From NCBI GenBank assembly GCA_937863565.1, contig CALMGJ010000028.1:40802-104801 (forward strand): a DNA stretch of 64,000 nucleotides, given 5' to 3'. Origin of the DNA: an uncultured bacterium (GTDB taxonomy: Bacteria > AUK180). Under the pieces are notes generated by a model that saw only the letters and a program-made list of their open reading frames with translations, searched no databases and was not told the origin of the DNA. Shown piece after piece: positions 9,457-34,248 of this stretch. Position 1 is the first letter of the stretch; every line of letters starts with the position of its first letter. A program made the position numbers and the translations under genes.

Positions 9457-9543
9457 TTAATCCCACTCTTCATAATAGATTGTGTTACTTTCATCTATCG
9501 CGCCCAAAAACATATTTTTCCAGACATGTATTTTCACGCGGAA

Positions 9544-10707: not shown

Positions 10708-10709
10708 TT

Positions 10710-11765: not shown

Positions 11766-11923
11766 AATATTATTATAATACTTTCCCCCGTATATTTCAA
11801 ATCTTTTCTTAATGAAAAAGAGGGACGTTGGTTGAAAAAGGTGAAATTTCCATATTGTTTCATGCAATCTTGATTTCAGCGCGGATTTCGTTATAATATT
11901 ACGGAACAGGGAAATGTTTTAAA

Positions 11924-12667
11924 ATGAAACTCCGAATAACGGCAACGGTCCTGATGTGCTTATTGCTTGCCGCTTCCTGCGGTAAGCAGAGCATCTCGCA
12001 AAAGGGGGAAAATACTATGGAAGAGAGCGGTCAATTCGCACAGAGAAGGAGTGAGATGGTGCAGTACCAGATCCGGGCGCGCGACATTACAAATAAAAAG
12101 GTCATCGAAGCGATGCTCAAAGTGGAGAGGCACAGATTCGTTCCGGAAGATGTTAAGGAGTACTCCTACGAAGACTATCCCCTTCCTATCGGGGAGGGTC
12201 AGACGATCTCCCAGCCGTATATCGTAGCCTTCATGACGGAGATGATCGCGCCCGGACCCGAAGACAAGGTGCTCGAGATCGGAACGGGATCCGGATACCA
12301 GGCGGCTATACTTGCGGAGATCGTGGCGGAAGTATTCACTATCGAGATCAATGAAGCGCTTTACAGAAGAACAAAAGCCCTCCTTTCCGGAATGGGATAT
12401 AAGAATATCCATACGATCTGCGGCGACGGATTTGCGGGTTATCCTGAAGCCGCGCCATTCGACAAGATAATAGTCACCGCCGCATCGAGCGAAGTACCGC
12501 CGAAACTCTTCGAGCAACTCCGCGAAGGCGGAAAGATGATAATACCGGTAGGCGAAGGGTATCAGGAACTCCTTCTCATCACTAAATTAAATGGGCAGAT
12601 GATAAGGGAGAATGTGCTGCCGGTGAGATTCGTTCCATTGATCGATAAAAACGGAAAACGATATTAA
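11924..12667 (+). CDS. pcm: protein-L-isoaspartate O-methyltransferase with lipoprotein signal
   Basis: ISQPYIVA, VLEIGTGSGYQAA SAM motif; N-terminal LLLAASCG lipobox. Confidence 0.9.
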   Translation: MKLRITATVLMCLLLAASCGKQSISQKGENTMEESGQFAQRRSEMVQYQIRARDITNKKVIEAMLKVERHRFVPEDVKEYSYEDYPLPIGEGQTISQPYIVAFMTEMIAPGPEDKVLEIGTGSGYQAAILAEIVAEVFTIEINEALYRRTKALLSGMGYKNIHTICGDGFAGYPEAAPFDKIIVTAASSEVPPKLFEQLREGGKMIIPVGEGYQELLLITKLNGQMIRENVLPVRFVPLIDKNGKRY

Positions 12668-18013: not shown

Positions 18014-18621
18014 TCTTCTCCGCCCGGCAGTTCATTACTGCAGGCCGGGCAGACCGTTTTCCCGTCCTTTTTTTTAAGATAAGGTTCCGCCGTTTTCTCA
18101 CCGCAGATATCGCATCTTCCGGAAACGAATATCCTCGCTGTTCCGGGCATTTTTCCCACAGGACGGCCGAGCTTTATATATTTCTCTTCCGGATCCGTCA
18201 ATATCCTTTTGATCCTTCTTTCCTTGATCTCACTCTTCTCTTTCCTTTCGGAATCCGTAAGTACGTCTTTTTTCGCAAGTTCGATAAAGCGTTTGTCGTC
18301 ATCGTCGTCTTTATAGTACGGTTCCGCATATATCCTCACGCCTTTACCCGTCTTGCGGTTGTAGAACGTGTAAACATTCTTACCGCGGTCCCTGATGATA
18401 AGGTTCCCCTTCCCCGCCGTGCAGCCGCATATGATCTGTATGGCGTCTATGCCGCAGGCGCCGTTCTCCACGACAGCTACGAATTCTTCATCATCCGCCC
18501 GACCGGATGAAAGTTCTCTTAGCGCTATCGTTGCCACTCTGTACCCGACGGCAAGTCCGGGGCAGGAATGCCCGTGAAATTTCACGGCGTCCTTGAACGA
18601 TGCTGATTTTTTATTTCCCAT
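18010..18621 (-). CDS. FmdE-family protein with C-terminal zinc ribbon
   Basis: FHGHSCPGLAVGYR motif; C-terminal CDICG...CPAC. Confidence 0.7.
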   Translation of the reverse strand: MGNKKSASFKDAVKFHGHSCPGLAVGYRVATIALRELSSGRADDEEFVAVVENGACGIDAIQIICGCTAGKGNLIIRDRGKNVYTFYNRKTGKGVRIYAEPYYKDDDDDKRFIELAKKDVLTDSERKEKSEIKERRIKRILTDPEEKYIKLGRPVGKMPGTARIFVSGRCDICGEKTAEPYLKKKDGKTVCPACSNELPGGEE

Positions 18622-19606
18622 TCTCCGTCTCCTTTGAAAGGCGGCTTACCAGTTCTGCGCGGTCCTTCCAGCCAAGTTTATTAAAGATCTCCGCCGCTTT
18701 AGCCAGATTGTCTTTTCCGGTCATCTTGCCCGTCATCCGGAAAAGTTTTTCCGCATATTTTTCCGCTTTCTTTATTTTATCGGATTCGATGATTGTCTGA
18801 ATTAAGTTAATAAAACTCTCTTCCTCGCCGCTGCGGTCGTTTATCTCGTGCCTGATATGAACCGCTTTCTCAAGAAAAGAAACAGCATCGGACGAGTTCC
18901 CGGAAAGGGCAAGCAATCGCCCGAGATTATTGAGATTCACAGCCTGTCCGTACTTGTCCCCTATCCTGATTCTGATTTCAAGCGATCTTTTAAAACAACC
19001 GATAGCCCCTTTATAATCCTTTTTTAAATAACACAGATAACCGACATTATTACAGTTGCTTGCTTCACCCTTCAAATCCCTATATTTCACACATATCGTA
19101 AGGGAATCGCTAAAACACTCATGTGCAGATGAATAATCCCTGAGAATATTGTAAATAACGCCCTTATTATTCAGTATTAAAGCCGCTGTTTCCGGATCAT
19201 GACTTTTCTTCGCGGCGGCATATGCTTCCGAATAACATTGAAGAGCCTTTTGATGAGCACCCAGTTTTTTATAAGCGACACCCAAAGAATTCAAGCAATT
19301 CACAGCACTCTTTTTCAATCCCGCTTTCTTCATAAGTGATAGGGCTGCTTCTTCTATTCTCAGCATTTCAGAATCTTTACCAAGAACCCCTTTTATATGA
19401 CCTATCTCCATCATACATACGGACTCGTTTATAGGATCATCGATCCTGCGCGATATCCTCAACGCTTTTTTCAAGTCTTCAAGAGCCCGGAAAGGTCTTC
19501 CCGTCAGTTTATACAAGTTGGCCCGCATTCTGAGAGCACGGCAGTATGTTTTAAGGTCTTTTATCTTATATTTATTTTTCAACGGGACCAGCGGACGACA
19601 AGGCAT
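18611..19606 (-). CDS. TPR-repeat protein
   Basis: TPR units throughout. Confidence 0.8.
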   Translation of the reverse strand: MPCRPLVPLKNKYKIKDLKTYCRALRMRANLYKLTGRPFRALEDLKKALRISRRIDDPINESVCMMEIGHIKGVLGKDSEMLRIEEAALSLMKKAGLKKSAVNCLNSLGVAYKKLGAHQKALQCYSEAYAAAKKSHDPETAALILNNKGVIYNILRDYSSAHECFSDSLTICVKYRDLKGEASNCNNVGYLCYLKKDYKGAIGCFKRSLEIRIRIGDKYGQAVNLNNLGRLLALSGNSSDAVSFLEKAVHIRHEINDRSGEEESFINLIQTIIESDKIKKAEKYAEKLFRMTGKMTGKDNLAKAAEIFNKLGWKDRAELVSRLSKETENGK

Positions 19607-19646
19607 AGATCAGCCGAAACCGATATATATTTGAGAGAAAAGCCCG

Positions 19647-20309
19647 TTAGATTTTCACGCATGTAAAAACGGCCGTATTATCCCATTGTTTCCTTATTTC
19701 TGCAATTTTAAATCCTGCCTCCAAGAATAACCGGATCTGCGTATCATTTGACAATGGCGTATCATAATGATATAAACCTGTAGAAATATTATTCGCTTTT
19801 CTTATTCTCTCACTTTCTTTTTGAAAATAAACTTCTTTATCTTTAGTCCGAACGGTATAATCGCCTTCAATATATACGGCATTCGGTTTTAGGGAATTAT
19901 ATATCTTCTTATAGAGCGATAATTTAGAGTCCGGACTGAAATGATGAAGCGAGTATGTTGAAATTGCCCAGTCATATTTCGAGAAGCCGTATTCAACATC
20001 GAAGTATGAGGCACACATTATATGGAGTTGATCTTTCTTTTCCTTGAATTTTTCCAATAGTTTTTCCAGCATTTTATCTGAAATGTCGATGCAGGTAATT
20101 TGAGCATTTGGGGCCGAAAGAAAAATATTTGAAATTTCCAGGCCCGTGCCGCAGCCGATATCTAATATTTGAGCGTTTGGCGGTCCTTTGGGGAAGTACT
20201 CGGCGATAGCATCATAAAATTCCCGAAGATTTAATTCTTCCAGCATATGCAGATCATATGTCTGAGCCCGAGAATTAAAAAAATCCTTCATCTCTTCCGG
20301 TTTTTCCAT
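19647..20309 (-). CDS. class I SAM-dependent methyltransferase
   Basis: ILDIGCGTGLE motif I; ATG at 20307-20309 with GGAGG RBS preferred over track start 20399. Confidence 0.75.
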   Translation of the reverse strand: MEKPEEMKDFFNSRAQTYDLHMLEELNLREFYDAIAEYFPKGPPNAQILDIGCGTGLEISNIFLSAPNAQITCIDISDKMLEKLLEKFKEKKDQLHIMCASYFDVEYGFSKYDWAISTYSLHHFSPDSKLSLYKKIYNSLKPNAVYIEGDYTVRTKDKEVYFQKESERIRKANNISTGLYHYDTPLSNDTQIRLFLEAGFKIAEIRKQWDNTAVFTCVKI

Positions 20310-20355
20310 CTTTTCCTCCTTCAGCCCCGCCAGAATGTACAACGGAATAATACCC

Positions 20356-21072
20356 TCAGAAGACACCGGGGAGCAACCGGTAACGCACACGGCGAACATA
20401 ATCCCGATACCCCGGCAATTCTTCCTGTAAAGTCTTATCTTCCAGAGCGGTCCTTATCACGGCAATGATCAGAGCTGCTATCACCGGAATGATCGTCCAA
20501 ACTGAGCTTAAAGCCAGCACAATGCCCGGCAGTGCCAGGAGATTTCCGGCATAGCCCGGATGTCTTACGATCCGATACGGGCCAGTATCACATACCATAT
20601 GTCCCCGGTCAGTCTGTATGCGCACTACGCTTGAGAAGAAGCGGTTCTCTATTAAAGCCCATCCGGCGAAAGAGTATCCGAATACGATCAGGATGAAGCC
20701 CGGGATATTGAGCCATATCGGGAATACGGGTGACCAACCGAAGCGGTGATCTAATCCTGCCACAATAAATAATGGAAAAGATATACTTACCGCCATTAAT
20801 GGAGAAAGCACTTTATCCCACGATTTCACATCCTGAGCTTTTCCGAATTTACTTCGTTCTGCCATCAATCCGGGATGCCTTTTTTCTGCCCGGATACGCG
20901 GACCTATGCCTGCTGCGATTATCAGGGCCGAATAAAACCACCCCTGCCACCAACCGGGATCCCGTCCGCATATCAAGAGAACCGGCGGTATGAGGAGATA
21001 TGTTATTATTACAGCCAAATATTTAGGGTTTGCTGTATTAAACGTATTTGGGTTAATTGTATTAGACATCAT
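20356..21072 (-). CDS. isoprenylcysteine carboxyl methyltransferase (ICMT/PEMT) family membrane protein
   Basis: multiple TM helices; RIVRHPGYAGN motif. Confidence 0.7.
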   Translation of the reverse strand: MMSNTINPNTFNTANPKYLAVIITYLLIPPVLLICGRDPGWWQGWFYSALIIAAGIGPRIRAEKRHPGLMAERSKFGKAQDVKSWDKVLSPLMAVSISFPLFIVAGLDHRFGWSPVFPIWLNIPGFILIVFGYSFAGWALIENRFFSSVVRIQTDRGHMVCDTGPYRIVRHPGYAGNLLALPGIVLALSSVWTIIPVIAALIIAVIRTALEDKTLQEELPGYRDYVRRVRYRLLPGVF

Positions 21073-21147
21073 ATTTAATCCCTCCCTTTTTCCGCTGCTT
21101 TCATCGGTATCCCGATGCGGATATCCTGCCTCATTTTCTCAAACGAT

Positions 21148-22221
21148 CTATTGAACGTTCGTTGCCCTACCGGCTGGCATCAATACTCCGGTTTCATCGA
21201 TGATTATTCCGTTTTCCGGGATGTCCTCATCTGTAAGTTTGATGATCTCCTTAAGCGCGGTATTCCCATCATCGGCGACCGGAATGCCCCGGCCGATCTG
21301 TTTTATGGATATGATATTGCCCTCTATGAACTCTCCCCGGGCATTTAATTTCGCTTTGAGTATCGGGGCCACGCCATTAGAGCCCTGCAGATTGAACCTT
21401 CCGTATGTGCAGAAATTGCCCAGACTGTATGCGATCAGGCGGCCTTTATAGACCTCCACTGCTCTTGAGACATGAGGGCCGTGGCCGAGTACAAGGTCCG
21501 CGCCGGCATCTACCGCGAGATGCGCGAATTCGTTTACATTCCCTCTGTATTCGGAGAAATAGTATTCCTTCTTTCCGGTGACATGCCTGTATTTGCTGCC
21601 TTCCCCGCCGCCGTGGAACGATACGATTACGATATCGTTCTCCTGTTTCAGTGCAGAGATCATCTTTGCGGCGCAGGGATAATCGTTCATATTATTGGTT
21701 CTTCTGTTCGGCGAGAATGCGATAAAGCCTATTTTCAATCCATTCGCTTCGAATTCACAGAAAGGTATATCCTCCGTGCCGGCATAATTGAACCCGTTAG
21801 CTTCAAGAGTTTTTACGGTTGTCCGCATGCCTTCTTCGCCGAAATCCCATATATGGTTATTGGCGATGCTGAGAAGACTGAAACCCGCATCCGAAATGAT
21901 CTTCCCGAAGCTCTCCGGCATTTTGAACACATAGCAGGCGCTCTTCTCCCTTCCCCGGCATTTTTTCGATTCGATCCTTTTGTCGCAGAGCGTGCCCTCA
22001 AGGTTCCCGAACACTATATCCGCTTCAAGATAATCTTTTACACCGTTAAAAATATCCTTGCCGCTATCAGGCGGGAGATAGGATCTGTTCGGATACCATG
22101 TTCCGATCATGATATCGCCGACAGCACTGATCGTTATCGCAGGCGTATCTCCGCCTTGATAAGAGTATCCGAAAGTGATCGAGGAAAAAAGAATGAGAAA
22201 TAGAACGGAAAATACTCTCAT
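21148..22221 (-). CDS. CapA/PgsA-family metallophosphatase-like protein
   Basis: signal peptide; GNLEG, ANNH, SFHGGGEG, GHGPHV motifs. Confidence 0.75.
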   Translation of the reverse strand: MRVFSVLFLILFSSITFGYSYQGGDTPAITISAVGDIMIGTWYPNRSYLPPDSGKDIFNGVKDYLEADIVFGNLEGTLCDKRIESKKCRGREKSACYVFKMPESFGKIISDAGFSLLSIANNHIWDFGEEGMRTTVKTLEANGFNYAGTEDIPFCEFEANGLKIGFIAFSPNRRTNNMNDYPCAAKMISALKQENDIVIVSFHGGGEGSKYRHVTGKKEYYFSEYRGNVNEFAHLAVDAGADLVLGHGPHVSRAVEVYKGRLIAYSLGNFCTYGRFNLQGSNGVAPILKAKLNARGEFIEGNIISIKQIGRGIPVADDGNTALKEIIKLTDEDIPENGIIIDETGVLMPAGRATNVQ

Positions 22222-22320
22222 ATCAGTAAGTTATCATATTTTCCGGTGTTTTTCAAATCATCTTACCGGACAGCCGGCGCCGGCTTAAAGACCATGCCCG
22301 CTTAGTATCAATTAAATACT

Positions 22321-22482
22321 ACTCAGAGATGAAATGAATAACAGCATGCAAAAGCGCAAATAGAAGCGCAAGCGCACCGGATATCTTATGGAGTTTCAGT
22401 TTCCACTTCATTAGTCCGCTCAAACCGGTTAGAATGATGAATACTAAAGTAAGAATACCCGCAAGGCCGAAGATCCTGTTCA
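22321..22482 (-). CDS. putative small hydrophobic protein (about 53 aa), not in ORF track
   Basis: ATG at 22480-22482 preceded by AGGAG (5-nt spacer); hand translation MNRIFGLAGILTLVFIILTGLSGLMKWKLKLHKISGALALLFALLHAVIHFISE; stop followed by GC-rich palindrome AGCCGGCGCCGGCT. Confidence 0.35.
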
Positions 22483-22497
22483 TGGTCACTCCTATTA

Positions 22498-22974
22498 TTA
22501 CCTGTTAAGTTCTTTGAGAACGCCGAGAAGTTCCTTGACATCCGGAACTTCTTTGATCGGATATATCTTGTAGAATAGTATCCTCCTTTTTTCACCTACG
22601 ATAACATTCGCTCTCTGCGAGAATCCCTTTTCATCATCAAAAAGACGGAGTTTTTTGCTGAATTTCCCGTGAGGCCAGAAATCGGAAAGAAGAAGAAGTT
22701 TTTTCAATTTAAGATGTTCTGCCCATGCATGTTTGCACGGTACGGGGTCCACGGAAACGCCCAAAGGCAGGCAATCGAGTTTTAAAAACTCATCATAATT
22801 CTCTTCCAGCGACAGCATCTGGTCCGTGCATACTTTGGTCCAGGCCAAAGGATGGAAAGAGAAAAGGACAAAGCCCCCTTTATGTTCCGTGAGTCTGAAC
22901 TCTTTTGCATGATGGTCCGGAAGAATCGCCTGTTTTATCTCCTCCCCGACGGGGTTCTCAATTATCTTTTGCAT
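22498..22974 (-). CDS. peroxiredoxin-like thioredoxin-fold protein (AhpC/TSA family)
   Basis: FHPLAWTKVCT resembles the Prx F.P..FT.VC active-site motif. Confidence 0.6.
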   Translation of the reverse strand: MQKIIENPVGEEIKQAILPDHHAKEFRLTEHKGGFVLFSFHPLAWTKVCTDQMLSLEENYDEFLKLDCLPLGVSVDPVPCKHAWAEHLKLKKLLLLSDFWPHGKFSKKLRLFDDEKGFSQRANVIVGEKRRILFYKIYPIKEVPDVKELLGVLKELNR

Positions 22975-23001
22975 ATGAACTCCTTATATTGTTTCTTATG
23001 T

Positions 23002-24552
23002 TTAAAGACATCGGGTCCGCAGATCCTCGACTTTTTTCAAATAACGCCTGTTCCCTGTCTTGCGGAACGCTCCGCTTGCTTTTCTAAGAAAGGCGAGCGT
23101 GTCATTCTTTCTGCCCTTAAAGAAAGCATATTCCGCATAATGATAGAAGGCCTTTGCAAGTTCGAAAGAACGTTTGATGTCGGAATAGATTTCGAACGCT
23201 TTGCGGAAGCACCGATCGGCCGCCCCGGCATCCTCTGAAGGCAACTTGGACAATGACCGGGCTTTTATAAGAAGGGCGTCCGCCATACCTATTTTGGATT
23301 TTATACCGGCGGAGATATCGTATGCTTTCTCTGCGCTTTCAAGCGCTTCGTCGTACCTGCCGAGCGCGATCGACAAAGAAGCTTTGCACAGTTCGTATTT
23401 CCTTGCGGAATCCGCGGACGGGCTTCCGCTCATAAGATTCCCCGCCATATCCAGATATTCTCCCGCCTCTTTAAGTCTGTTCATTTCGATCAACACGGAA
23501 CAAAGACTTATCGCGCAACTGCACTTTTCCCTTTCGGAGCGAAGCTCCTCAGATATGTTCATCGAACGCTTAAAACACTCCATCGCCTCCTCAAGATCGC
23601 CGAGCCTGTTATTGAGGTGGCCCATGTTCTCGAGCGTAGCCGCTTCCCCCTTTCTATCGCCGATCCTTTCTTTCATTTCCAGTGAAGCAGAAAAACATTC
23701 CAGTGTCGTTCTGTACTTTCCCAGAGCATAGCAGATGACGCCGATATTATTGTATGAAACAGAAAGGGAACTTCTGTCGCCGATCTCGATGAAGATATCC
23801 CTTGCTTTATTGTGACATTCAAGGGCTTTTGAATAATTCCCCGCACGCTGGTAGAATCCTCCCAGGCGGGTATGGCACATCCCCTGCCCGTGTCTGTCCC
23901 CTATAGCGGTCCTTATCTCAAGCGCTTTCAAATAGTATTTGTACGCTTCTTCATTTTTCCCGATATATTCATTTGCATTGCCGATATTGTTCAAGCACAT
24001 CGCTTCCGTTTTCAGATCGGCGCTTTTTTTCGACAATTTCAGCGCACGCATGAAAAAAGCCATCGCACGCCCCGGATCCCCGATGCTCAGATAAGCCGTT
24101 GCGGCATTATTGAGGCTCTGTCCCTTTCCTGTAAGGTCCTTCTCCCGAAAAGTGCACGCTGCCTTAAGAAAATAACCAAGGGCTTTCCGGTGATCTCCGA
24201 ATCCGCTTTGAACCGCACCGAGATTGTTGTACGATTCTGCTGAGATCTTTCTGTTCCCTGTCTTTTGCGAGATCTTCAGCGCTTTTAATGCTCTGTTTTC
24301 CATATCGCCGTACATGCTCAGCGAGCCGTATACATTGCTTTGAAGAAGACAGGTAAGTGCGGCGTATTCCCTGTTGCGGACGGTTTTGGACAATTTTTCA
24401 GCGTTGTTCAGATCCGTTAAAGCATCGTGATTGCGCCCGATAAGCCCGTACACATCGGCCCTTCCGTGAAGGGCTTTTATAACAGTTTCCATCTTCCCGT
24501 TCTTTTTCTGTCCGGACAGGGACTTCATAGTGATTGAGCCTGTTTTCTCCAT
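23002..24552 (-). CDS. TPR-repeat protein
   Basis: tandem LxNIGxxYxxxGxYxxALxYYxxAL...IGDRxG units. Confidence 0.8.
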   Translation of the reverse strand: MEKTGSITMKSLSGQKKNGKMETVIKALHGRADVYGLIGRNHDALTDLNNAEKLSKTVRNREYAALTCLLQSNVYGSLSMYGDMENRALKALKISQKTGNRKISAESYNNLGAVQSGFGDHRKALGYFLKAACTFREKDLTGKGQSLNNAATAYLSIGDPGRAMAFFMRALKLSKKSADLKTEAMCLNNIGNANEYIGKNEEAYKYYLKALEIRTAIGDRHGQGMCHTRLGGFYQRAGNYSKALECHNKARDIFIEIGDRSSLSVSYNNIGVICYALGKYRTTLECFSASLEMKERIGDRKGEAATLENMGHLNNRLGDLEEAMECFKRSMNISEELRSEREKCSCAISLCSVLIEMNRLKEAGEYLDMAGNLMSGSPSADSARKYELCKASLSIALGRYDEALESAEKAYDISAGIKSKIGMADALLIKARSLSKLPSEDAGAADRCFRKAFEIYSDIKRSFELAKAFYHYAEYAFFKGRKNDTLAFLRKASGAFRKTGNRRYLKKVEDLRTRCL

Positions 24553-25931
24553 CTCATATTACCCAAACGGTTGAATAGTTCGATCGCTTTTTTCTTGAAT
24601 TCAATCATCTCATCCGTTTTTCCGCTTCTTTTCAGTTCTTCCGCAAAATAATAATAGCATCGCGCAAGTTCCTGCGGAGCATTCACCTTTTCCAGCGTAT
24701 CGCAGGCTTTTCTGAAATGGAGAGCGGCTTTTTCCATATCCCCTTTTTTTGACAGTATCCTTCCCCGGAAGGCCTCCGCCAGTCCTATCTGTTCTCCCTG
24801 GGCGAAAGACACTTCGAGCGGGGAGCACTTCTCCAGAAAAGCTGAAGCGGCAGCAAGATATGCCGGGTCGGGGACCTTGAGGCCGCAGTATGTCTCGATC
24901 TCGATCTCTGCAGCGGTCAGATACCCTTTCAACAGGTACTCTTTCGAGCCTATCGACTCCGCAAGACCGATAGCCTTTGTACAATGCAATCTGGCATTTT
25001 TAAAATCCTTTTTTTCCGATAATATGAGTGCAATGTTGCCGCTTGTTATCATCACTCCGAATCTGTCCCCCATCGCTTCTTTTATCCGGACCGATTCCTC
25101 ATAACACTCCACTGTCTTTTCGCTGCGGCCCAGATAGAAATATGTTCCGCCAAGATTGTTGAGCATGTGGGCTATTCCCTGCCTGTCTCCTATGATTCTC
25201 ATTATCTTCAAGGATTGCAGATAATACTTCAAAGCTGGACCGTACTCCCCCTTTGCGAAATGTACGCCTCCAATACCGGAGAGGCTGTTCGCCCGGCCGA
25301 GAGCATCCTGTATCCGTTCCTGGATCAAAAGCGCCTTTTTGTAGTGTTCGAGCGCATCTTGCCTTTCGTTCATCTGAAAACGGACGTATCCGATTGCAAA
25401 AAGCGTGACCCCTTCCTGGTACGCATCGCCGAGCATTCTGCTTTTAACGAGCGAGCGGCCGAAGTATTCAAGCGCTTTGTTCAGCTCTCCCCTTACGAAA
25501 TAGATATTCCCGATATTTTTAAGTATGCCGGCAGTCTTTGCCGCGTACTTCCTCCTGCTTTTAAATATATCGTAGGCCTTCAAAAGATATTTCAGCGCTT
25601 CCTCCGTTCTGGCTTTGTAGTAATAATAACGTCCCAGGGCATTAAGGCTCGCTCCCATACCTTCCGCATCCTTGAGCGCGGTGTAATTCTTTAGAGTTTT
25701 TTCCGAAATGGAAAGGAATTCCTCCCATTCGCCGCAGGAAGAATGAACTTCGGCCAAAACGAGAAGAAGAGACAGTTTTAATGCCTTGTTGCGGGAATCT
25801 TCAAGAACGGATATGCCGGCATTGATCACTTCTTTCGCCTCGGCAGTTCTGCCGATCCGGGAAAGAAGCTGGGTTTTATTGCGGAAAGCCGAAGCGGCAA
25901 GAGAATGTATCCGGCTCTCTGTAATGGTCAT
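24525..25931 (-). CDS. TPR-repeat protein
   Basis: TPR units; overlaps neighbours at both ends. Confidence 0.8.
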   Translation of the reverse strand: MTITESRIHSLAASAFRNKTQLLSRIGRTAEAKEVINAGISVLEDSRNKALKLSLLLVLAEVHSSCGEWEEFLSISEKTLKNYTALKDAEGMGASLNALGRYYYYKARTEEALKYLLKAYDIFKSRRKYAAKTAGILKNIGNIYFVRGELNKALEYFGRSLVKSRMLGDAYQEGVTLFAIGYVRFQMNERQDALEHYKKALLIQERIQDALGRANSLSGIGGVHFAKGEYGPALKYYLQSLKIMRIIGDRQGIAHMLNNLGGTYFYLGRSEKTVECYEESVRIKEAMGDRFGVMITSGNIALILSEKKDFKNARLHCTKAIGLAESIGSKEYLLKGYLTAAEIEIETYCGLKVPDPAYLAAASAFLEKCSPLEVSFAQGEQIGLAEAFRGRILSKKGDMEKAALHFRKACDTLEKVNAPQELARCYYYFAEELKRSGKTDEMIEFKKKAIELFNRLGNMRWRKQAQSL

Positions 25932-28069
25932 TTAAGAACGACCTTTCCTTCCTCGATAGTAACGGTTATCCTGTCATCCTTCGTCTCCACGATATAGTCA
26001 ACAAGCGCCGGCATGAGTTCGTTTTTAATAAAAATGTCCACAAACACGCCGAAATCCTTCGTCAGGGATTCTCCGGCGATATACTCAACTATTCCCGGCA
26101 AATACTCAAGTGTTCTTTTAAATTCGTTTTTTATCCGGTCCGAAACCTTGGCAAGTTTCGCCTCCGTAACGGACTTCATGGAATCCTTGTCCAAGGCAGT
26201 GAATTCAATGATCTCGTCCACGGCCGGTAATACGGCTTCAAAAGCGGCAGAGAGGGATGTTCCGCCTTCGTCGCTCTTTCCCTGCAGAAATCCCATAGAT
26301 GGCCTTGCACTCTTCCCCGACGCCGCCATGAAGACCACGGTAATCGAAGAAAGGTAATGCTGTCTTCCTATGGCATCTGAGAAATTCCCTCTTTGCAAGG
26401 CCTCTGAAATGAAATTGACAATGAAAGGATGCGCACTTTCAAGGCCTGTGAAAACGATGATCGAATGGGGATTGTCATCCACCGTTTTCACTAAAAACCC
26501 TCTCTCGCCGTAACCGACATAACCGGGCGGCGAACCGATCATCTTAGCGATATAATGCGGCTCATTGTATCCGGACAGGTCGATCTCGCAGACCTTGTCC
26601 TGCCTTCCGAAGAGAAATTCCGCAAGGGAAAATACCATTTCACTTTTTCCCGTTCCGGACGGACCGGTAAAAATAAAAACGCCGTCCGGACGGGCCGGAT
26701 TCGGATCAAGCTCGAGCTTGGTGATCCTGAGTATCCTGCATAGTTTATTGATCGCCTGTTCCTGCCCGAACACTTTATGTTTCAGATATAGAGGCAGCGT
26801 AGAATAGTAAACTTTCGCATCCCTCTTAAAGGCACCTGGCGGCAGGCCGGTTATCTCGGATACGGTCATCCTTACCGTTTCAAGGTCCAGAGCATCCATC
26901 ATTCTTGATGCGGCTTTCGCACATGAACGGTCCAGAAGATCGATCGCTTTATCCGGAAAAGCCCTCTGCGGAATGTATAAGCGAGAAAGCGTGATTATCT
27001 CGGGAAGGAGTTTATCCTCGATTTTAAGCTTGTGATGCTTTTCGAATTTATCCTTGATCCTCTTCAGTATCACTTCAAGAGTATCCGCATCAGGTTCATT
27101 GAGAAGAATCGGATTGAACCGTCTGGAAAGAGCTTCGTCATTGACAAAATATTTATAATACTCGTCCGAGGTCGTTGCTCCGATCACTGTGATCTCATTA
27201 TTGCCCAGAGCAGCTTTAAGGAGATTGGCCACATCACCTTGTCCCTCAGGCCCGCCGGCGGCAAAGAGAGTGTGTATCTCGTCAAAGAAAAGTATGACAT
27301 GCTTGCCTGCGTTCTTTACGGCGCCTATGAGTTCCTTGATCCTTCTTTCCGTATCCCCGATATATTTGACATTGGCCAAAAGGAGGTTGCGGTCCACTTC
27401 ATATATGATGACATCCTTTAGACGCAACGGTACATCTTCCTGTTCTATTCTTTCCGCTACAGCACGAATGACCGCGGTTTTCCCTACTCCCGCACGGCCG
27501 AGGATCAGGGGGTTATTCTTGAGGAACCTGCACAGCGTCTCGAGAATGCATTCTATTTCCGCATCTCTACCTATCACGGGAAGATAATCCCCTCTTTTGA
27601 CATCCTCGTTGAGGTTCCTTCCGAATGCGTCCAGAACACTTTTTACATCCGGAGGAAGCGCATAAGATACTTTTGCCTGCGCACTCTTGTCCTGTTTTAT
27701 GTTTTCGAGGAATGAAAGACCCGGATCGCCCTTATAAAAGGCTTCGGCCAGATCGGAGAGATCGGCCTTCTCCTTTTGCTTACTGATGGCTATATCGACG
27801 GCATTGTTCAGGATCGCTTGAACGTCTTTGGAGACCGTAAGAGATTCTCCCGCACCTTTCAGAGGCTCCATTCTTCTCTTTTTCTCCTGATAATGGACTT
27901 CCATGGCGGGATCGCCGTCTTTGAGTTTTTCCAGAAGCGTCAGAAGCAGGACGGAAGCATTGAGCACTCCGCAGTAGCGGCAAGCCATTGATTTCGCCTG
28001 TTCGAAAATGAAGAGGACTTCATTCGAAAGAGCGCTTAAGATAGCTTCTTTTTTGCGGAGTTCACCCAT
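25928..28069 (-). CDS. ClpA/ClpB-family double-AAA+ ATPase with degenerate D2 Walker B
   Basis: D1: GRAGVGKT Walker A, ILFFDEIHTL Walker B. D2: GPSGTGKSE Walker A but IIVFTGLESAHP where hhhhDEIEKAHP is expected. 713 aa, no obvious middle coiled-coil. Confidence 0.75.
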   Translation of the reverse strand: MGELRKKEAILSALSNEVLFIFEQAKSMACRYCGVLNASVLLLTLLEKLKDGDPAMEVHYQEKKRRMEPLKGAGESLTVSKDVQAILNNAVDIAISKQKEKADLSDLAEAFYKGDPGLSFLENIKQDKSAQAKVSYALPPDVKSVLDAFGRNLNEDVKRGDYLPVIGRDAEIECILETLCRFLKNNPLILGRAGVGKTAVIRAVAERIEQEDVPLRLKDVIIYEVDRNLLLANVKYIGDTERRIKELIGAVKNAGKHVILFFDEIHTLFAAGGPEGQGDVANLLKAALGNNEITVIGATTSDEYYKYFVNDEALSRRFNPILLNEPDADTLEVILKRIKDKFEKHHKLKIEDKLLPEIITLSRLYIPQRAFPDKAIDLLDRSCAKAASRMMDALDLETVRMTVSEITGLPPGAFKRDAKVYYSTLPLYLKHKVFGQEQAINKLCRILRITKLELDPNPARPDGVFIFTGPSGTGKSEMVFSLAEFLFGRQDKVCEIDLSGYNEPHYIAKMIGSPPGYVGYGERGFLVKTVDDNPHSIIVFTGLESAHPFIVNFISEALQRGNFSDAIGRQHYLSSITVVFMAASGKSARPSMGFLQGKSDEGGTSLSAAFEAVLPAVDEIIEFTALDKDSMKSVTEAKLAKVSDRIKNEFKRTLEYLPGIVEYIAGESLTKDFGVFVDIFIKNELMPALVDYIVETKDDRITVTIEEGKVVLK

Positions 28070-28600
28070 TTATTCCCATTTCTCCTTTTTGTCGAGATCG
28101 GTGAAATCAGTTTTCTTTTTCTGTCCTTCCAGCGATTGCTGAGTAGTAAGGCCGCCGAAATTCTGAACAATATAATCATCATTGCTGTCCGCGATAAGCG
28201 CAGCATTCTCGATCGCGTTCTCGAGCTCCTCCTTAGTTACTGTAGGACCGAAGATATCATAGAAAAAGACAACATTGCCGTATCCGGGTTTCTCCTTGTA
28301 TTCGTTGTAGCAGAGGCCGCCGAACATTATCTGGACATTCTTCGTTGCTATCCAGCTCAGCACCTCGGGCTTTTTAGGGGTTTGATACGTCAGCACCGCA
28401 GACACAGTAACGACGGATTGGGTATTCTTGTACATGTAAACATTGGTCTGCACATCGGTTGAGCCCCTGTACATGGCTAAAGTGAAATCATTCCCCTCCG
28501 CGTCCTTCAGAATCCCGACATTGCGTTCACCGTAAAGAAGCACGAGCATGTGTTTCACTTTTAAAAACACTTCCTTTTGCTGTTCATTCAGAAACGGCAT
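28070..28600 (-). CDS. uncharacterised small soluble protein, translationally coupled to the AAA+ ATPase (possibly YbjN-like; unverified)
   Basis: Stop TAA abuts ATPase ATG at 28067-28069; own GGGAGGG RBS upstream of ATG at 28600. Confidence 0.5.
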   Translation of the reverse strand: MPFLNEQQKEVFLKVKHMLVLLYGERNVGILKDAEGNDFTLAMYRGSTDVQTNVYMYKNTQSVVTVSAVLTYQTPKKPEVLSWIATKNVQIMFGGLCYNEYKEKPGYGNVVFFYDIFGPTVTKEELENAIENAALIADSNDDYIVQNFGGLTTQQSLEGQKKKTDFTDLDKKEKWE

Positions 28601-28671
28601 ACAACCCTCCCTTTTTTTTTATTATAACATAAACGCTTCAATTCAACAATCCCGGTCTGAAGCCGCTGTTT

Positions 28672-29733
28672 TTAAATACTCTCATTCACGCCCAAGGCAT
28701 TACGCAGTTCCGCGATCCTTTTTTCCAGTTCCGCGTCCTGAGGAAGCCCTTTTTCCTTCGCATAATGCAGAGCTTTCTTATAATCATCAAACGCGGCCAT
28801 TCTTCTTCCCAGGCAAAAATTAGCCTCACCCGAACCTACAAGGCAATTATACACGCCGGGCGGATAATTCAATTTCATACTCAATTCCAGGGCTTTACAG
28901 AAATATTTCAAAGCTCGGGCGGGCTGTCCCGTACGAATACAGCAGGAACCGAGATTCTGAAGACATGAAAAAGTCCCGAACAGGTTACGTGTAGGCTCTA
29001 TGAGCTTGTAGGCCTTTATAAGAAATCTTACCGCATCATCATGGCGTTGTGTATTTTTATAGATAACCCCGATATTATAGAGGCTATTCGCTATTCCGAT
29101 CGTGTACATGAGCCGCTCCGACATTTCAAGAGATCTTTTGAAATAGTTCAATGCTTCATCATAGTTCTTCTGCTGAAGATAATACATGCCCAATCCAACA
29201 ATGGTATGCGTTTTAACGGCCAGATCGTTCCCTCCGGAAGCGCTGTCATAGGCTTTTTTTATAAATTTGAACTGGCTCTCGGGTTCATTCTTTCTGTAGT
29301 AGAGATACGAGATCTCGGCACAGAGTTCGGAGATCGGTTCATTGAGTGCTTCCTTTATCTCAAGGGCCCGCATGAAATGATCCAGGGAATCGTCGTATCT
29401 CCCCGCATTGAAATATACTTTCCCGAGATAGAAGCAAGCGTTGCCTAACCAGCTTCGATTCCCTGTTTTCTCAGAAAGAACGGCTGCATCCCGTGCGTTT
29501 TTCTCTGCCTCCTCATGCCGGCCCATGATAATGAATATACTGCAATAGAGAAGATGCGCCCTGATTATGCGGAGATCGTCCTCGAGGCCGGTTACGGTCT
29601 TGTAATATTCATCAAGATCTGAGAGGGCTTCCATATTCTTCCCGATGAAATTATGCAGTTCATGCCTTTTATACAGGGCGGTCAGGTAAAGATTTTCGTA
29701 TGATTTGAGGTTTTTCAAGGATGCTTCCTTCAT
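28672..29733 (-). CDS. TPR-repeat protein
   Basis: TPR units. Confidence 0.8.
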   Translation of the reverse strand: MKEASLKNLKSYENLYLTALYKRHELHNFIGKNMEALSDLDEYYKTVTGLEDDLRIIRAHLLYCSIFIIMGRHEEAEKNARDAAVLSEKTGNRSWLGNACFYLGKVYFNAGRYDDSLDHFMRALEIKEALNEPISELCAEISYLYYRKNEPESQFKFIKKAYDSASGGNDLAVKTHTIVGLGMYYLQQKNYDEALNYFKRSLEMSERLMYTIGIANSLYNIGVIYKNTQRHDDAVRFLIKAYKLIEPTRNLFGTFSCLQNLGSCCIRTGQPARALKYFCKALELSMKLNYPPGVYNCLVGSGEANFCLGRRMAAFDDYKKALHYAKEKGLPQDAELEKRIAELRNALGVNESI

Positions 29734-29766
29734 ATATATCCGCTTTCTTAAGCGGATTTTGCGGCC

Positions 29767-30540
29767 TCAGTACACATAATTGGCCTCGGCAAAGATCCTG
29801 CTTATAATCTGCTCCATCGAATAGAGTCCTTTTGGTTTTCCGATAAGCCATTTGGCCGCAAATATAGCGCCCTGGCCGAAGGCCGAACGGTTAATGCTCT
29901 CGTGAACAAGGCGTATTGTCTGGTTTGGAAGGCCGAACACTATTTCATGTCTTCCCACCACGCCGCCGACGCGTATCGAGTTTATCTTTTTTGTTTCGTC
30001 GAGGCTGAGAGCTTTCGCGATCTTCTTGGCTGTCCCGGATATCTCCTCCTTCTCGCGGAAGTGCTCTTCGATTATCTCGATATCAGCGTGGGGCGCGATC
30101 TTCCTCAATAGCTGCGAAGCTATGAGCAGGAAATTGATCCCGAGAGTGATATTGGGAGAATAGAGCACGGCGGTCTTCCTCTTTAGCGCCATCAGCATCT
30201 CATAATCGTCCGTATCGTATTTTGATACTGCCGAGATCAGTTTAATTCCTTCATCAGCAGCTGCCTTATAAGACCTCACCGCGTGAGTACCGGCAAAATC
30301 CACTATGATGTCCACAGGATTCTTCTTATAGAAATCTTCACCTATATCATTGCGCGAAAAAATCTCCCCTTCATCCTTTTCATGGCCTAAAAGCCTGCTT
30401 GCATATTTATGGTGTTCGTTCTTGGTTCTCCTCACGACCCATTTTACGTCGAATATCGGGTCCTTTATGAATTCATTTACTACGAGTTTTCCGGTTCTTC
30501 CGAAACCGAACATTCCAACTGCGACCTTCTTCATGATCAC
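29767..30540 (-). CDS. DapB-family (4-hydroxy-tetrahydrodipicolinate reductase-like) oxidoreductase
   Basis: N-terminal GFGRTGK Rossmann loop; EEHFREKEEISGTA versus DapB consensus E.HH..K.DAPSGTA. Confidence 0.6.
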   Translation of the reverse strand: MIMKKVAVGMFGFGRTGKLVVNEFIKDPIFDVKWVVRRTKNEHHKYASRLLGHEKDEGEIFSRNDIGEDFYKKNPVDIIVDFAGTHAVRSYKAAADEGIKLISAVSKYDTDDYEMLMALKRKTAVLYSPNITLGINFLLIASQLLRKIAPHADIEIIEEHFREKEEISGTAKKIAKALSLDETKKINSIRVGGVVGRHEIVFGLPNQTIRLVHESINRSAFGQGAIFAAKWLIGKPKGLYSMEQIISRIFAEANYVY

Positions 30541-30579
30541 CTCCGTTCAAAACTTCCCAGCGTTCCGACTTTAATTAAA

Positions 30580-31923
30580 TCAGAATGCAGTGCAGACCGC
30601 TATACGAAAACCGTCCTTCAAAGGCATCATGGACAATGCCGGGAACGACTCGATCGAACCCGTATCCTTCGCTCTGTGGTTTATGAACGTATTCCGTACA
30701 AGAATCGTACTTACAGCGCCGGTAACAAGAGAGGCAGCGAAATAGATATATCCCTCCGTGGAATCCGAACCGAGCACATATGTCATTCCGGCCCCGATGA
30801 GAGAGCCTGTCGTACCTGCCAGCATTATTAGAAAACCCTCATTGCCCTTATAATGATCCTGTCCCCTGAGGAATTTATCGCCTAGTACAAGGCCGCCGAG
30901 TGTCAGGGGGATCGAGAGCACCGCGCATTCAGTAGGTTTTTCCCACCAGTCGAACATATCGATGAGGCATAAAGAGAGTTGTATCGCGAGAGTGCCTGAT
31001 GTGCGGATTATATAAGCATCTCCGGTCTCATAGTTACGCGCTCTTCCCCAGAAATATCCTGTTATCAGGTTGCCCGCGGAGATAATTGGCGCAAGCGCCA
31101 AATAACCCTTCGTTTTGCCGTAATCGTTCACCGGGTCCTTTTCTTCAAGTTCATACATCGCCGATAAACCTATTAATATCCCCCAGCCAAGACCGAAATC
31201 ACCCCAAACGCCCATGGATTCGGCTGTACCTGAGCTAATTTCGCGGGAGCGTGAAAGTGCATAAAGGCCGCCTGCAGAAACGATGCTCGTCATCAACATG
31301 TAAAAATTCAATTCGCTCCAATCGCTCTCCTCGACCTCCGCGTCCGTAAGAGCGCTCCCGAGCGTCCATCCCCAGGCTATGCCTCTTGTTCCACCGTAAG
31401 TGAAGAGTTTTGCGTCGGCCATATCGATATCCTTATTCCTTGAAAGGTAGAAAGGCAGAAAGAACCCTGTTCCTGAAGTGAGAAGATAAATCCCCATACC
31501 GAGCTTGAAATCGTCTACCTCGAGAGCGACAGGGAGGCTCCAGCCCCAGAAGGCAAGCGCGAGCGTGGATGAACCGTATATAAGAGCTCGACGGGAGGAG
31601 ATATCAGTATCCCCGTGACGGATGTTCTTGAGGACCGATATTTTATCTCTCAGTTCCCCTAATTCGTATTCGGATAGGATCTTTATTTTCCGGATAATGT
31701 CCGGGCCTATCCTGTACCTCAATTCGAGCGTATAAACATTCTCCGTTTCGAATATCTCACCTGAGATGAACTCCCCGGTATCGTGGAAAAGGCCCAGTTC
31801 TCTCTCAAGTTCTGGGCCGTATATTTGTATCCTTCCTTCTGCATCGAACGGTATCTGCCTGGAATCCGGGAAAGATAATGCCGATACCGTGAATATTAAA
31901 AGGATGAGAATGATTTTCTTCAT
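30580..31923 (-). CDS. hypothetical secreted polytopic membrane protein, Gly-rich TM region
   Basis: ATG at 31921-31923 with AAGGAGG RBS; signal peptide MKKIILILLIFTVSALS; repeated GxxxG-rich hydrophobic segments. Confidence 0.55.
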   Translation of the reverse strand: MKKIILILLIFTVSALSFPDSRQIPFDAEGRIQIYGPELERELGLFHDTGEFISGEIFETENVYTLELRYRIGPDIIRKIKILSEYELGELRDKISVLKNIRHGDTDISSRRALIYGSSTLALAFWGWSLPVALEVDDFKLGMGIYLLTSGTGFFLPFYLSRNKDIDMADAKLFTYGGTRGIAWGWTLGSALTDAEVEESDWSELNFYMLMTSIVSAGGLYALSRSREISSGTAESMGVWGDFGLGWGILIGLSAMYELEEKDPVNDYGKTKGYLALAPIISAGNLITGYFWGRARNYETGDAYIIRTSGTLAIQLSLCLIDMFDWWEKPTECAVLSIPLTLGGLVLGDKFLRGQDHYKGNEGFLIMLAGTTGSLIGAGMTYVLGSDSTEGYIYFAASLVTGAVSTILVRNTFINHRAKDTGSIESFPALSMMPLKDGFRIAVCTAF

Positions 31924-32018
31924 AAGGCCTCCTTGAATAATTATAGCAATTTTCGAGTACTCAGTCAAGATTATAACGGGGCGGTCTTCAGTGGAGCGCT
32001 GTGCCTTATTCTGTCCTT

Positions 32019-33128
32019 CTAGACTTTTTCTCGAGTCTTTCGAACGGCATTCTTCAATTGTTCGATATGTGCCGCGACCTCCGCGTATTCGCTGTGCAGG
32101 TTCATTTTCTTTGCCGTTGCAGCAGTATGTTCATATGCTCTCAGAGCCTCGGGGATCCTTTTCAAAGCCTTATATGCATCACCAAGACCCGCCGAACATT
32201 CGTATTCTCCCAGGTGATAACCGATCTCTATGCTCAAGACAAGCCCTTTCTTCAATATGCTTTCCGCTTTCCCCCAAGCGTTCATCTCGTTGTATGTGAG
32301 ACCCATGTTCGTAAGGTTCGTTACCTGGCTTCTTTTATCGCCTATCTCCGCATTTATGCGGCTCGCTCTGTCGAAAAAGGGTAGGGCGTTTTGGTATTCT
32401 TTCATGAGACGGTGGGCAAAACCGATCGCGTTCAGACACATGGCGCTTTTTGTTCTGTGGCCTATCTTGTCGTTTATTTCCAGGGAACCGTGCAGCAATT
32501 CCAAAGCATTTTCGTATTCGCCGAGATATAATTGGGCGATGCCCAGGTGGAGAAGTGCAAAGGCCTCCGTATACAAGTCATTGCTTTTCCGGGCGAGCAA
32601 AATGGATCTTTTAAGCGGCTCTTTTGCTTTTTCGGGTTTTTTCATGTGAATATACGTGAGCCCTCTGTTGCTGTACAACATCGGCACCTCTTTTTTCAGC
32701 GCTTTTTCTGCGCAAACCTCAATGGCTTTTTTATTATAGTAGAGAGCGCCTCTGGTCCTGCCCGTAAATGACATAAGATTCGCCATATTGTTGAAAAACA
32801 GGAAAAGGAGGTTCGGGCTGGGGTTCTTTAAAAGCGTTTTCCCGGCTTTTCTTAAATGCTTCTCCGCTTCCGCCATCCTGCCCATATCAAGATACATGAT
32901 ATTGCTCAAGACGATACTGCCCCAGGAGACAAGATCGCTTTCCTTCGATTCTACTGCGCATTCATGAAAATACCGCATGTCCTCCTCAGCCCTATCTTTC
33001 ATCCCTACTCTTCTGTACATCTCCATCCTTTCCCATAGTACGCTGAAAAAGAGCCTGCGAAGATCCATATTTTCAAGATAAGTCCTTATAGAAAGTCCCC
33101 TATTCTTACTTTTTTCCTGCTTTCTCAT
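32019..33128 (-). CDS. TPR-repeat protein, tandem paralog 3 of 3
   Basis: N-terminal LFFSVLWERMEMY shared with the next two genes. Confidence 0.8.
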   Translation of the reverse strand: MRKQEKSKNRGLSIRTYLENMDLRRLFFSVLWERMEMYRRVGMKDRAEEDMRYFHECAVESKESDLVSWGSIVLSNIMYLDMGRMAEAEKHLRKAGKTLLKNPSPNLLFLFFNNMANLMSFTGRTRGALYYNKKAIEVCAEKALKKEVPMLYSNRGLTYIHMKKPEKAKEPLKRSILLARKSNDLYTEAFALLHLGIAQLYLGEYENALELLHGSLEINDKIGHRTKSAMCLNAIGFAHRLMKEYQNALPFFDRASRINAEIGDKRSQVTNLTNMGLTYNEMNAWGKAESILKKGLVLSIEIGYHLGEYECSAGLGDAYKALKRIPEALRAYEHTAATAKKMNLHSEYAEVAAHIEQLKNAVRKTREKV

Positions 33129-34248
33129 TCTCTTTTATCTCCCTGATGCGCGCGGTTGCAATCTCAGGAAGCGGTAGGCCTTTCTTGCGGGCGAGGGCCG
33201 ATGCTTTATTAAAGAGTGCCATTGCTTTTTTCCCGCGTTCCTCGGCAGACGAAGGATTCTGGCCTTTTCGGGATTTATTTCTCATCGTCCAGTAGGCGTT
33301 CCCCAGAAGGCAATAACCGTCGATCAACAATGGTATGCTTGCTGCTTTACTGCATGCCCTAATGATTTCCTCTTCTATCTTTAACGCACTTAACGCGCGA
33401 TCAAGTTCAATAAATGAATTCCCGGCATTTATCAAATTTGTTGCCTGATCGTAGTAATTCAGTATTCCGGAATTGATGCGGTATGCCCGCATAAAATATG
33501 GAAGCGCTTTTTCATGCTCGTTCTTTAATTGATAGATATGCCCTATTATATTTAGGCACTGGGCGATCTTGCCGGCGTGCAGGATCTTCTCGTTGATCTC
33601 GAGGGATCTCTGCGCATATGCAAGGGCCCGTCCGTACCTGCCCGTTTTCAAGCCGGCGATGCTTAAATAGATCAGGGCAAAGGCTTCAATATAGAGGTCC
33701 TTCTTCGTTCTCGAAAGGGCAATGGCCTTTTCCAGGTATTCCTCCGCTTTGTCCGCATCATCCATCTGAAGACACAGTATGCCCATATTATTGTATAACA
33801 TGGGTATCTCTTCATCAAGCCCGCATTTCCTGCACACTTTGAGCGCTTTGAGATAAAAAGGCATAGCTTCTCTGAACCGTCCCGTATATCCCATTATATT
33901 TGCCAGATTATTGTAACAATGCCTGAGAAGCGCCCGGTCTCCTCCTCTACGCAGGATATCAAGCGCTTTGTGAATATATTTTTCGTATGCGCCGCAGTGT
34001 TCCATATCCATGTACATTCGGTTGCTTAGGATGATATAGCCCCAGGCCATATAAGTCCGATCGCCTGTCTTGAGGGCTTTTTCATAACAGAGATCAAGGT
34101 CTCTTTCGGCAAGTTCTCTTTGACCGGTCTTTCTGTAAAGTTCGCTTCTTTCCCACAATGCATCGTAGAACATCCTGTGAAATTCATTTCTTCCTGAATG
34201 CCCGGCTTCTTTTCCCAAAAGATCAAATGTTCTTTTTGTTCTTTTCAA
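33106..34248 (-). CDS. TPR-repeat protein, tandem paralog 2 of 3
   Basis: MFYDALWERSELY; PMLYNNMG; IEAFALIYL. Confidence 0.8.
   Translation of the reverse strand: MKRTKRTFDLLGKEAGHSGRNEFHRMFYDALWERSELYRKTGQRELAERDLDLCYEKALKTGDRTYMAWGYIILSNRMYMDMEHCGAYEKYIHKALDILRRGGDRALLRHCYNNLANIMGYTGRFREAMPFYLKALKVCRKCGLDEEIPMLYNNMGILCLQMDDADKAEEYLEKAIALSRTKKDLYIEAFALIYLSIAGLKTGRYGRALAYAQRSLEINEKILHAGKIAQCLNIIGHIYQLKNEHEKALPYFMRAYRINSGILNYYDQATNLINAGNSFIELDRALSALKIEEEIIRACSKAASIPLLIDGYCLLGNAYWTMRNKSRKGQNPSSAEERGKKAMALFNKASALARKKGLPLPEIATARIREIKENEKAGKK

Follow-up and report, generated by a model that had tools for sequence, protein, structure and literature searches.

A Clp-type double-ring ATPase with a degenerate second ring and a conserved small partner in an uncultured AUK180 bacterium

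What can a Clp-type unfoldase do when its second ATPase ring has lost the residues for ATP hydrolysis, and which of the genes around it belong to it? The question is raised by a locus of an uncultured bacterium of the AUK180 lineage (contig CALMGJ010000028.1). The window, the whole 64-kb stretch of DNA that was analysed, encodes a double-ring ATPase of the Clp/Hsp100 class, a small protein directly upstream of it and tetratricopeptide repeat (TPR) proteins on both sides. Coordinates refer to this window; ORF stands for open reading frame. The reading that we prefer, with belief and doubt in balance, is an unfoldase that docks on ClpP, is driven by its first ring (D1) alone and is served by a dedicated chaperone-type adaptor. 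The core of this system would be two genes.

The ATPase and its two rings

Two AAA+ modules follow each other in the ATPase: D1 belongs to the classic clade and carries AAA_lid_9, and D2 (AAA_2) belongs to the HCLR clade. Pfam places AAA at residues 188-319, AAA_lid_9 at 333-390 and AAA_2 at 460-591. The gene and its parts are the following.

25928-28069, minus strand: Clp/Hsp100 class I ATPase gene, 713 amino acids (aa), with a Clp_N-like N-domain, D1 and D2, without M-domain
27650-28069, minus strand: N-domain, about residues 1-140, Clp_N double-repeat fold, divergent in sequence
26885-27592, minus strand: D1 AAA+ module, about residues 160-395, all catalytic and pore residues present
25931-26797, minus strand: D2 AAA+ module, about residues 425-713, a pseudo-ATPase by sequence
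26444-26449, minus strand: codons T541-G542, at the D2 Walker B Asp-Glu positions in HMMER alignments to ClpC, ClpE and ClpB
26288-26296, minus strand: codons M592-G593-F594, candidate ClpP-docking tripeptide

The D1 motifs comprise Walker A GRAGVGKT (191-198), the pore loop KYIG, Walker B FFDEIH (261-266), sensor-1 GATT and the Arg fingers SRRF. D2 has a Walker A GPSGTGKS (469-476) and a pore loop GYVG, and its Walker B region reads IIVFTGLESAHP (537-548). In HMMER alignments to solved ClpC, ClpC1-like, ClpE and ClpB chains, T541-G542 fall exactly on the Asp-Glu of 'vilfDEiEkAHP'. The D2 comparison set also included the ClpB-ClpA 'BAP' chimera 5ofo and a motif table over 90 Clp loci. A displaced Walker B was rejected: the alignments place no acidic pair within two residues of T541-G542, and the reading fails because E544 aligns with the non-catalytic second Glu of DEIEKAHP. 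Further losses concern the sensor-1 Asn (FMAASG versus MTSNxG), the Arg finger (LPAVDE versus FLNRxDE) and the sensor-2 Arg (FGVF versus FGAR). The Walker A Lys and the pore-loop Tyr of D2 are kept. D2 is predicted to be catalytically dead and D1 to be a complete ATPase. An earlier note on this DNA had read GRAGVGKT and FFDEIH in D1 and a degenerate Walker B in D2, and had proposed a partly inactive machine. The motif read-out located both D1 motifs, the alignments confirm the replacement of Asp-Glu by TG without a displaced acidic pair, and the combined loss of Walker B, sensor 1, Arg finger and sensor 2 beside an intact D1 agrees with partial inactivity.

The degenerate D2 is, judged from the homologues, a family trait and not an accident of one protein. 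Statistics were collected for the 120 best homologues, which are 35-56% identical to the ATPase of the window. They come from Acidobacteriota/Blastocatellia, WOR-3, unclassified metagenome-assembled genomes (MAGs) and one MAG labelled Dependentiae. The Walker B Asp-Glu, the Arg finger Arg and the sensor-2 Arg of D2 are each present in 0/120, and Walker B reads [RK]-N in place of Asp-Glu. D1 Walker A and B and the Arg fingers are kept in 120/120, with Tyr or Phe as the aromatic residue of the D1 pore. Parts of D2 are equally constant: the pore Tyr (120/120), the Walker A Lys (119/120), the G-F of the docking loop (120/120) and many further invariant positions.

A scan of a genome collection with D1 motif patterns yielded 80 loci, mostly of ordinary ClpC and ClpA, which served as controls. 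A separate group of Clp-like ATPases was seen at four loci (L028:2833-4620, L033:4024-5775, L084:5938-7734 and L056:557-1783). These proteins have mostly 583-598 aa and, by their length alone, apparently no N-domain. Walker B of D2 reads F[AE]N or LEN with loss of the Asp, the Arg finger is replaced by Trp and the xIGF loop persists. At these loci, a small partner was not detected. The group represents another lineage with a naturally degenerate D2.

Among solved structures, ClpC, ClpC1 and ClpE are the best matches of the ATPase (E about 1e-96 to ClpC chains, HMMER). Among NCBIfam models, ClpV1 (TIGR03345) is the top match with 453 bits, far under its equivalog cut-off of 885; ClpA (TIGR02639) reaches 420 of 993 and ClpB 396 of 1232 bits. 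The best structural match of the N-domain is ClpV/TssH. As the scores are far under all equivalog cut-offs, the ATPase is not a housekeeping ClpA, ClpB, ClpC or ClpV, in line with the earlier note, which had set it apart from housekeeping ClpA. It has no M-domain, because the linker from the D1 lid to D2 is only 62 aa long, compared with 122-123 aa in co-aligned ClpC sequences. By these comparisons, the protein belongs to a branch of double-ring unfoldases of the ClpA/ClpC type that is widespread and uncharacterised. An exact look-up of its sequence gave no database record, and no other Clp ATPase was found within the window. Relatives are annotated as 'ATP-dependent Clp protease ATP-binding subunit ClpA/ClpC'. 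Neither the family nor its pairing with the small protein was found to be described by an NCBIfam or PADLOC model or by a paper in the literature searched.

The dead ring carries a candidate ClpP-docking loop. Its sequence 'SMGFL' aligns residue for residue with 'SIGLI' of ClpA (in the BAP chimera) and also with 'NVGF' of ClpE, and ClpB controls in the same alignment are devoid of an xGF loop. The check for an IGF/L loop that the earlier note had suggested is positive, with M592-G593-F594 on the IGL of ClpA, where ClpC has LGF. The invariance of G-F in all homologues, over several phyla, argues for a maintained function of the loop.

The small partner and the conserved unit

The small protein is encoded directly upstream of the ATPase.

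28070-28600, minus strand: small partner gene, 176 aa, predicted YbjN / type III secretion class I chaperone (TY-Chap1) fold
28073-28084, minus strand: codons E173-K174-W175-E176 of the C-terminal tail, conserved E-x-W-E at the end of an acidic disordered tail

The structure model has an alpha-beta-beta-beta-alpha-beta-beta-alpha topology, the type of YbjN and of class I chaperones from type III secretion systems (T3SS). The small protein is thus predicted to have the peptide-binding fold of these proteins. Its match to the TY-Chap1 Pfam model is weak, with 20.9 bits at a cut-off of 27. A 52%-identical homologue and partners in other phyla match PF22551/PF10722. Residues 154-176 have a predicted local distance difference test (pLDDT) value below 50 and are predicted to be disordered. 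The end of this tail is conserved: it reads EKWE in the window, E[YF]WE in Blastocatellia and EEWE in WOR-3, and E-x-W-E is present in all partners but one. W175 is nearly invariant in the partner alignment.

A homology search with the single sequence of the small protein found one homologue only, and BLASTP against the upstream ORF of locus L002 found no match. A hidden Markov model (HMM) built from the partners of several loci recovered this relation and was used for partner detection. With it, the partner adjoins the ATPase in 16 of 18 genome or contig loci with a degenerate D2. One of the two exceptions is a contig edge, and its partner is located at the end of a different contig in that assembly. 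Such a partner accompanies one of about 65 canonical-D2 Clp loci. An independent sample of 30 metagenome loci was retrieved by the degenerate Walker B motif alone. Here the partner is adjacent in 20/20 evaluable loci, always with an E-x-W-E tail, and four further loci have truncated partners at contig ends. The nearest relatives, WOR-3 and the window have the gene upstream of the ATPase, and Blastocatellia have it downstream. The dedicated small partner that the earlier note had postulated is thus conserved beside the ATPase across phyla. The conserved unit consists of two genes, the ATPase and the small partner, and not of five.

The Trp tail is rare among wider TY-Chap1 representatives (18/150) and present in 108 of 118 Chloroflexota YbjN proteins. 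At the four Chloroflexota loci examined (L018, L020, L091 and L093), YbjN proteins ending in DLDW[GE]xx are encoded directly 3' of Clp ATPases without M-domain. These ATPases are of two types. In one, D2 is canonical and the D1 pore loop (GQIGEFE) contains no aromatic residue. In the other, the D2 Walker A is degenerate (GPSDTSKN), Walker B reads H-D and the Arg finger is missing. One of the nearest relatives of the window has three tandem partner paralogues 5' of the ATPase (L089:17-1701); the copy nearest the ATPase is without the E-x-W-E tail and the other two carry it.

Other tails also occur on this fold. The TY-Chap1 representatives P0261, P0272, P0268 and P0276 end in G[FY]YL, which we take to resemble the C-terminal GQYL motif of mycobacterial proteasome activators. 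By analogy, this may be another case of a TY-Chap1 fold with a protease-docking tail. No Clp fusions were found among multidomain TY-Chap1 proteins. The fusions seen (P0390, P0385 and P0295) involve the C-terminal part of FHIPEP (FlhA-type export gate), TrkA_N with RyR, and a Card1-like endonuclease. A literature search on TY-Chap or YbjN together with Clp found nothing relevant.

A proposed D1-driven unfoldase and its rivals

In the preferred reading, the hexamer would be powered by D1 only. D2 would be a static structural ring, perhaps with bound nucleotide, that forms a lining of the channel and makes the contact to ClpP. Such an arrangement would be an NSF-like division of labour within a Clp protease partner. 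The small partner would be a dedicated adaptor or holdase that grips a segment of the client in extended form and tethers the client through its Trp-acidic tail, so that a weak D1-only motor suffices. In the window, the pair is translationally coupled to two of many TPR paralogues, which might be lineage-specific clients or co-adaptors.

The ClpA literature bears on this proposal in two directions. D2 of ClpA accounts for 80-90% of ATP hydrolysis and acts as the principal unfoldase ring, and many folded substrates defeat a variant in which D2 is inactive (PMC7568338). This failure fits a need for pre-unfolded clients held by a chaperone. The fixation of a dead D2 with retention of the ClpP loop of the same ring is unexpected, because D2 drives ClpA.

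Several points weigh against a D1-driven protease partner. The dead ring corresponds to the principal motor of ClpA, and a ClpP partner with D1 alone may therefore be too weak. No ClpP gene was found in the window or in any fetched locus; ClpP docking is for this reason argued from one conserved loop, and the xGF loop could serve another contact. Absence of clpP beside the ATPase gene is also usual for clpA and clpC. The model of the small protein has moderate confidence only (pLDDT 62). One degenerate-D2 locus (L012) is without a partner within 6 kb. Finally, the ATPase of the window is atypical in its family, with TG at Walker B versus [RK]N and with the canonical Walker A Ser, which is a His in 99/120 homologues. 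Its behaviour may therefore not be that of most family members.

The main rival, which we regard as fairly unlikely, is a machine that recycles chaperones independently of ClpP. D1 would release or recycle the clients of the TY-chaperone partner, and the xGF loop would be vestigial or make another contact. This would account for the loss of the ring that normally drives translocation into ClpP and for the lack of ClpP nearby. It also suits the partner fold, which belongs to chaperones that an ATPase separates from their clients; the type III secretion ATPase strips effectors from their chaperones. A vestigial loop is difficult to reconcile with a G-F that is invariant in 120/120 sequences over several phyla. 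The absence of an M-domain and the position of the loop represent the architecture of ClpP partners, and the ClpB controls have no such loop.

The earlier note had proposed a machine of five genes, with the TPR proteins as dedicated adaptors of a Clp-like remodeller that is partly inactive and with the small protein as an additional partner. We consider this unlikely. The remaining features of the locus are needed for its evaluation.

28672-29733, minus strand: TPR353, 353 aa, TPR_12-type, TPR-only (Pfam), 5' of a 71-nucleotide (nt) gap
28621-28649, minus strand: promoter-like element TTGTTG-17 nt-TATAAT with extended TG, read from the sequence, promoter function putative
28605-28613, minus strand: strong ribosome-binding site AAGGGAGGG upstream of the small gene, in the 71-nt gap
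24525-25931, minus strand: TPR468, 468 aa, TPR_12-type, TPR-only (Pfam), a local neighbour that is not conserved with the module
23002-24552, minus strand: TPR516, 516 aa (508 aa if the start is Met9), TPR_12-type, TPR-only (Pfam), a local neighbour

The TAA of the small gene directly abuts the ATG of the ATPase. The TGA of the ATPase overlaps the ATG of TPR468 (ATGA), and TPR468 overlaps TPR516 by 28 nt from Met1, or by ATGA if Met9 is the true start. These junctions are as described in the earlier note and join ATPase, TPR468 and TPR516 in support of a larger machine. The fifth gene does not abut: a 71-nt gap splits TPR353 from the small gene. Since this gap holds the promoter-like element and the ribosome-binding site, TPR353 is probably on a separate transcript and the transcription unit likely begins at the small gene. 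It may run from there through the ATPase and the two TPR genes to an AhpC/TSA gene 27 nt beyond TPR516. A scan for consensus promoters and terminators did not list the element at 28621-28649; it gave no overall enrichment and was uninformative.

The three flanking TPR genes encode multiple TPR_12/TPR_1 repeats (E 1e-32 to 8e-49, Pfam). TPR516 also matches the Pfam model SNAP (E 5e-11), a generic similarity of helical repeats. They are part of a group of TPR_12-type, TPR-only paralogues that is strikingly expanded here, with at least eight members, all on the minus strand at 16727-35293, about 19 kb, with 22-43% identity and lengths of 428, 331, 516, 468, 353, 369, 380 and 356 aa. Unrelated genes are interspersed: FmdE with a zinc ribbon, a SAM methyltransferase, an ICMT/PEMT-like protein, PGA_cap, AhpC/TSA, a DapB-like protein and a membrane protein.

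A TPR gene resembling those of the window is present at one of 21 other module loci, 3.5 kb from the module, and absent from the other 20. At loci L003 and L004, a regulator gene of the Trans_reg_C-TPR type lies some 3 kb downstream. The two nearest relatives have, in the place of TPR468, a Flavin_Reduct gene that overlaps the ATPase stop by 4 nt (L001:1837-2352, L089:3902-4417). Lineages without TPR neighbours also conserve the E-x-W-E tail. Because similar TPRs are rare at other loci and the paralogues of the window are interleaved with unrelated genes, dedicated TPR adaptors are unsupported as a property of the system, and this part of the earlier note was not upheld. The TPR genes are a local peculiarity outside the conserved unit.

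A lineage-specific TPR link is possible. In addition to the coupling in the window, Spirochaetota MAGs encode Clp-type double-ring ATPases of 835-941 aa in which an N-terminal TPR domain replaces Clp_N (L016:204-2981, L017:3633-6458, L025:635-3142, L039:4942-7749); they have a canonical D2 and an xGF loop. W-acidic and Y-acidic peptides bind in the groove of kinesin-light-chain TPR domains (PMC6214655). The Trp-acidic tail of the partner resembles these ligands, and its neighbours are of the TPR_12 type; this is an analogy only.

The preferred reading of a ClpP-docking unfoldase can be extended in a speculative manner. YbjN/T3SS-chaperone-fold proteins with a C-terminal Trp-acidic tail might be an unrecognised class of Clp adaptors that feed extended clients to ClpP via a D2-off unfoldase. 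In this lineage, the co-transcribed TPR proteins of kinesin-light-chain type might also read EKWE, as a bacterial counterpart of W-acidic cargo recognition, and the paralogue array might diversify the choice of client or adaptor. We hold this extension to be improbable.

A role in secretion is very unlikely. The ATPase could be a sheath recycler like ClpV/TssH or the ATPase of a cryptic type III-like export system, in view of ClpV1 as the best NCBIfam match and of the T3SS chaperone fold of the partner. Its ClpV1 score is about half of the cut-off (453 versus 885), no genes of a type VI secretion system (T6SS) or T3SS were found in the window or at any module locus, and it has a ClpP-type loop, of which we know none in ClpV. 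That the locus is an anti-phage or conflict system, or that the ATPase is a Clp paralogue decaying without function, has hardly any probability. In favour of such readings, the first description of TY-Chap1 came from ADP-ribose-centred conflict systems (PMC9503650), defence islands commonly contain AAA+ and TPR proteins, and D2 is degenerate. Against them, PADLOC gave generic AAA/TPR matches only and none for the small partner, the neighbouring genes have housekeeping functions, the ORF is uninterrupted, conservation of D1 is perfect, many D2 positions are invariant and the pair is kept across phyla.

Other neighbours of the module hint at a possible redox-stress theme. In the window, an AhpC/TSA peroxiredoxin (22498-22974) follows the two TPR genes, compared with Flavin_Reduct in the nearest relatives. 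At L087:2478-4477, genes for OsmC, a thioredoxin-like protein, glutaredoxin and Cpn10 are located divergently, 5' of the partner.

Further away in the window, positions 8000-12000 have a guanine-cytosine content of 0.40, versus about 0.47-0.50 elsewhere. The stretch encodes a 387-aa ORF (9544-10707) with DGQQR and C-terminal HNH-like motifs and a 385-aa ORF (10710-11867) in which NPPF is a methyltransferase motif. By eye, the stretch has the look of an acquired restriction or defence island. At 42947-49583, a cluster resembles, by eye, genes for the NiFe hydrogenase maturation proteins HypE, HypD, HypF and HypB-like together with a hydrogenase large subunit, with heterodisulfide-reductase-like and 2-oxoacid:ferredoxin oxidoreductase genes beyond. 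The hydrogenase-maturation and heterodisulfide-reductase-like genes suggest a strict anaerobe.

Related systems and meaning

The ATPase resembles ClpA in its Clp_N domain, its two AAA+ rings, the absence of an M-domain and a docking tripeptide at the same position (MGF here, IGL in ClpA). The small partner gene directly upstream recalls the ClpA-ClpS pair: clpS lies immediately upstream of clpA, and ClpS is the adaptor of ClpA. The partner differs from ClpS in its predicted fold, that of YbjN and T3SS chaperones, and the D2 that is dead here is the principal motor in ClpA (PMC7568338). ClpC, ClpC1 and ClpE, with MecA or McsB as adaptors, share the xGF loop and can be likened in their adaptor dependence; the ATPase of the window differs by the lack of an M-domain, the dead D2 and another partner.

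NSF is a double-ring AAA+ protein with a working D1 and a non-hydrolysing structural D2. The predicted roles of the rings are alike, and TPR516 adds a match to the Pfam model of the NSF partner SNAP. The two systems have no family-level homology, and NSF has no protease partner. From the T3SS class I chaperones (SicP, ExsC, CesT and SycH) and the YbjN family (DR_1245, AmyR and Tll0839), the small protein differs by the lack of a secretion system nearby, by its E-x-W-E tail and by the pairing with a Clp-type ATPase.

ClpB is distinguished by its long M-domain and the missing xGF loop, as well as by the low score of the ATPase (396 versus 1232 bits). ClpV/TssH is alike as best NCBIfam and best N-domain match; the score far under the cut-off, the lack of a T6SS context and the ClpP-type loop set the ATPase apart. 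ClpI of Actinomycetota is a bioinformatically defined extra class of double-ring Clp proteins with sub-classes that have or lack an LGF motif (PMC10149685). An assignment to ClpI was rejected: ClpI has intact ATPase modules and an M-domain of ClpC length, and the family of the window has neither.

In studies of ClpA, ClpB and ClpC, D2 is regarded as the main engine, and the family described here has naturally fixed the state of the engineered D2-inactive ClpA (PMC7568338). It is large, extends over several phyla and still keeps the docking loop, the D2 pore Tyr and one particular partner. Recognition of this dead-D2 family corrects the automatic annotation of its genes as ClpA/ClpC. If the proposed D1-driven unfoldase is true, the family would be a natural system to ask what a Clp protease with D1 alone can do. 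It would also provide the first concrete role for a part of the poorly understood YbjN family and would link the fold of secretion chaperones to regulated proteolysis.

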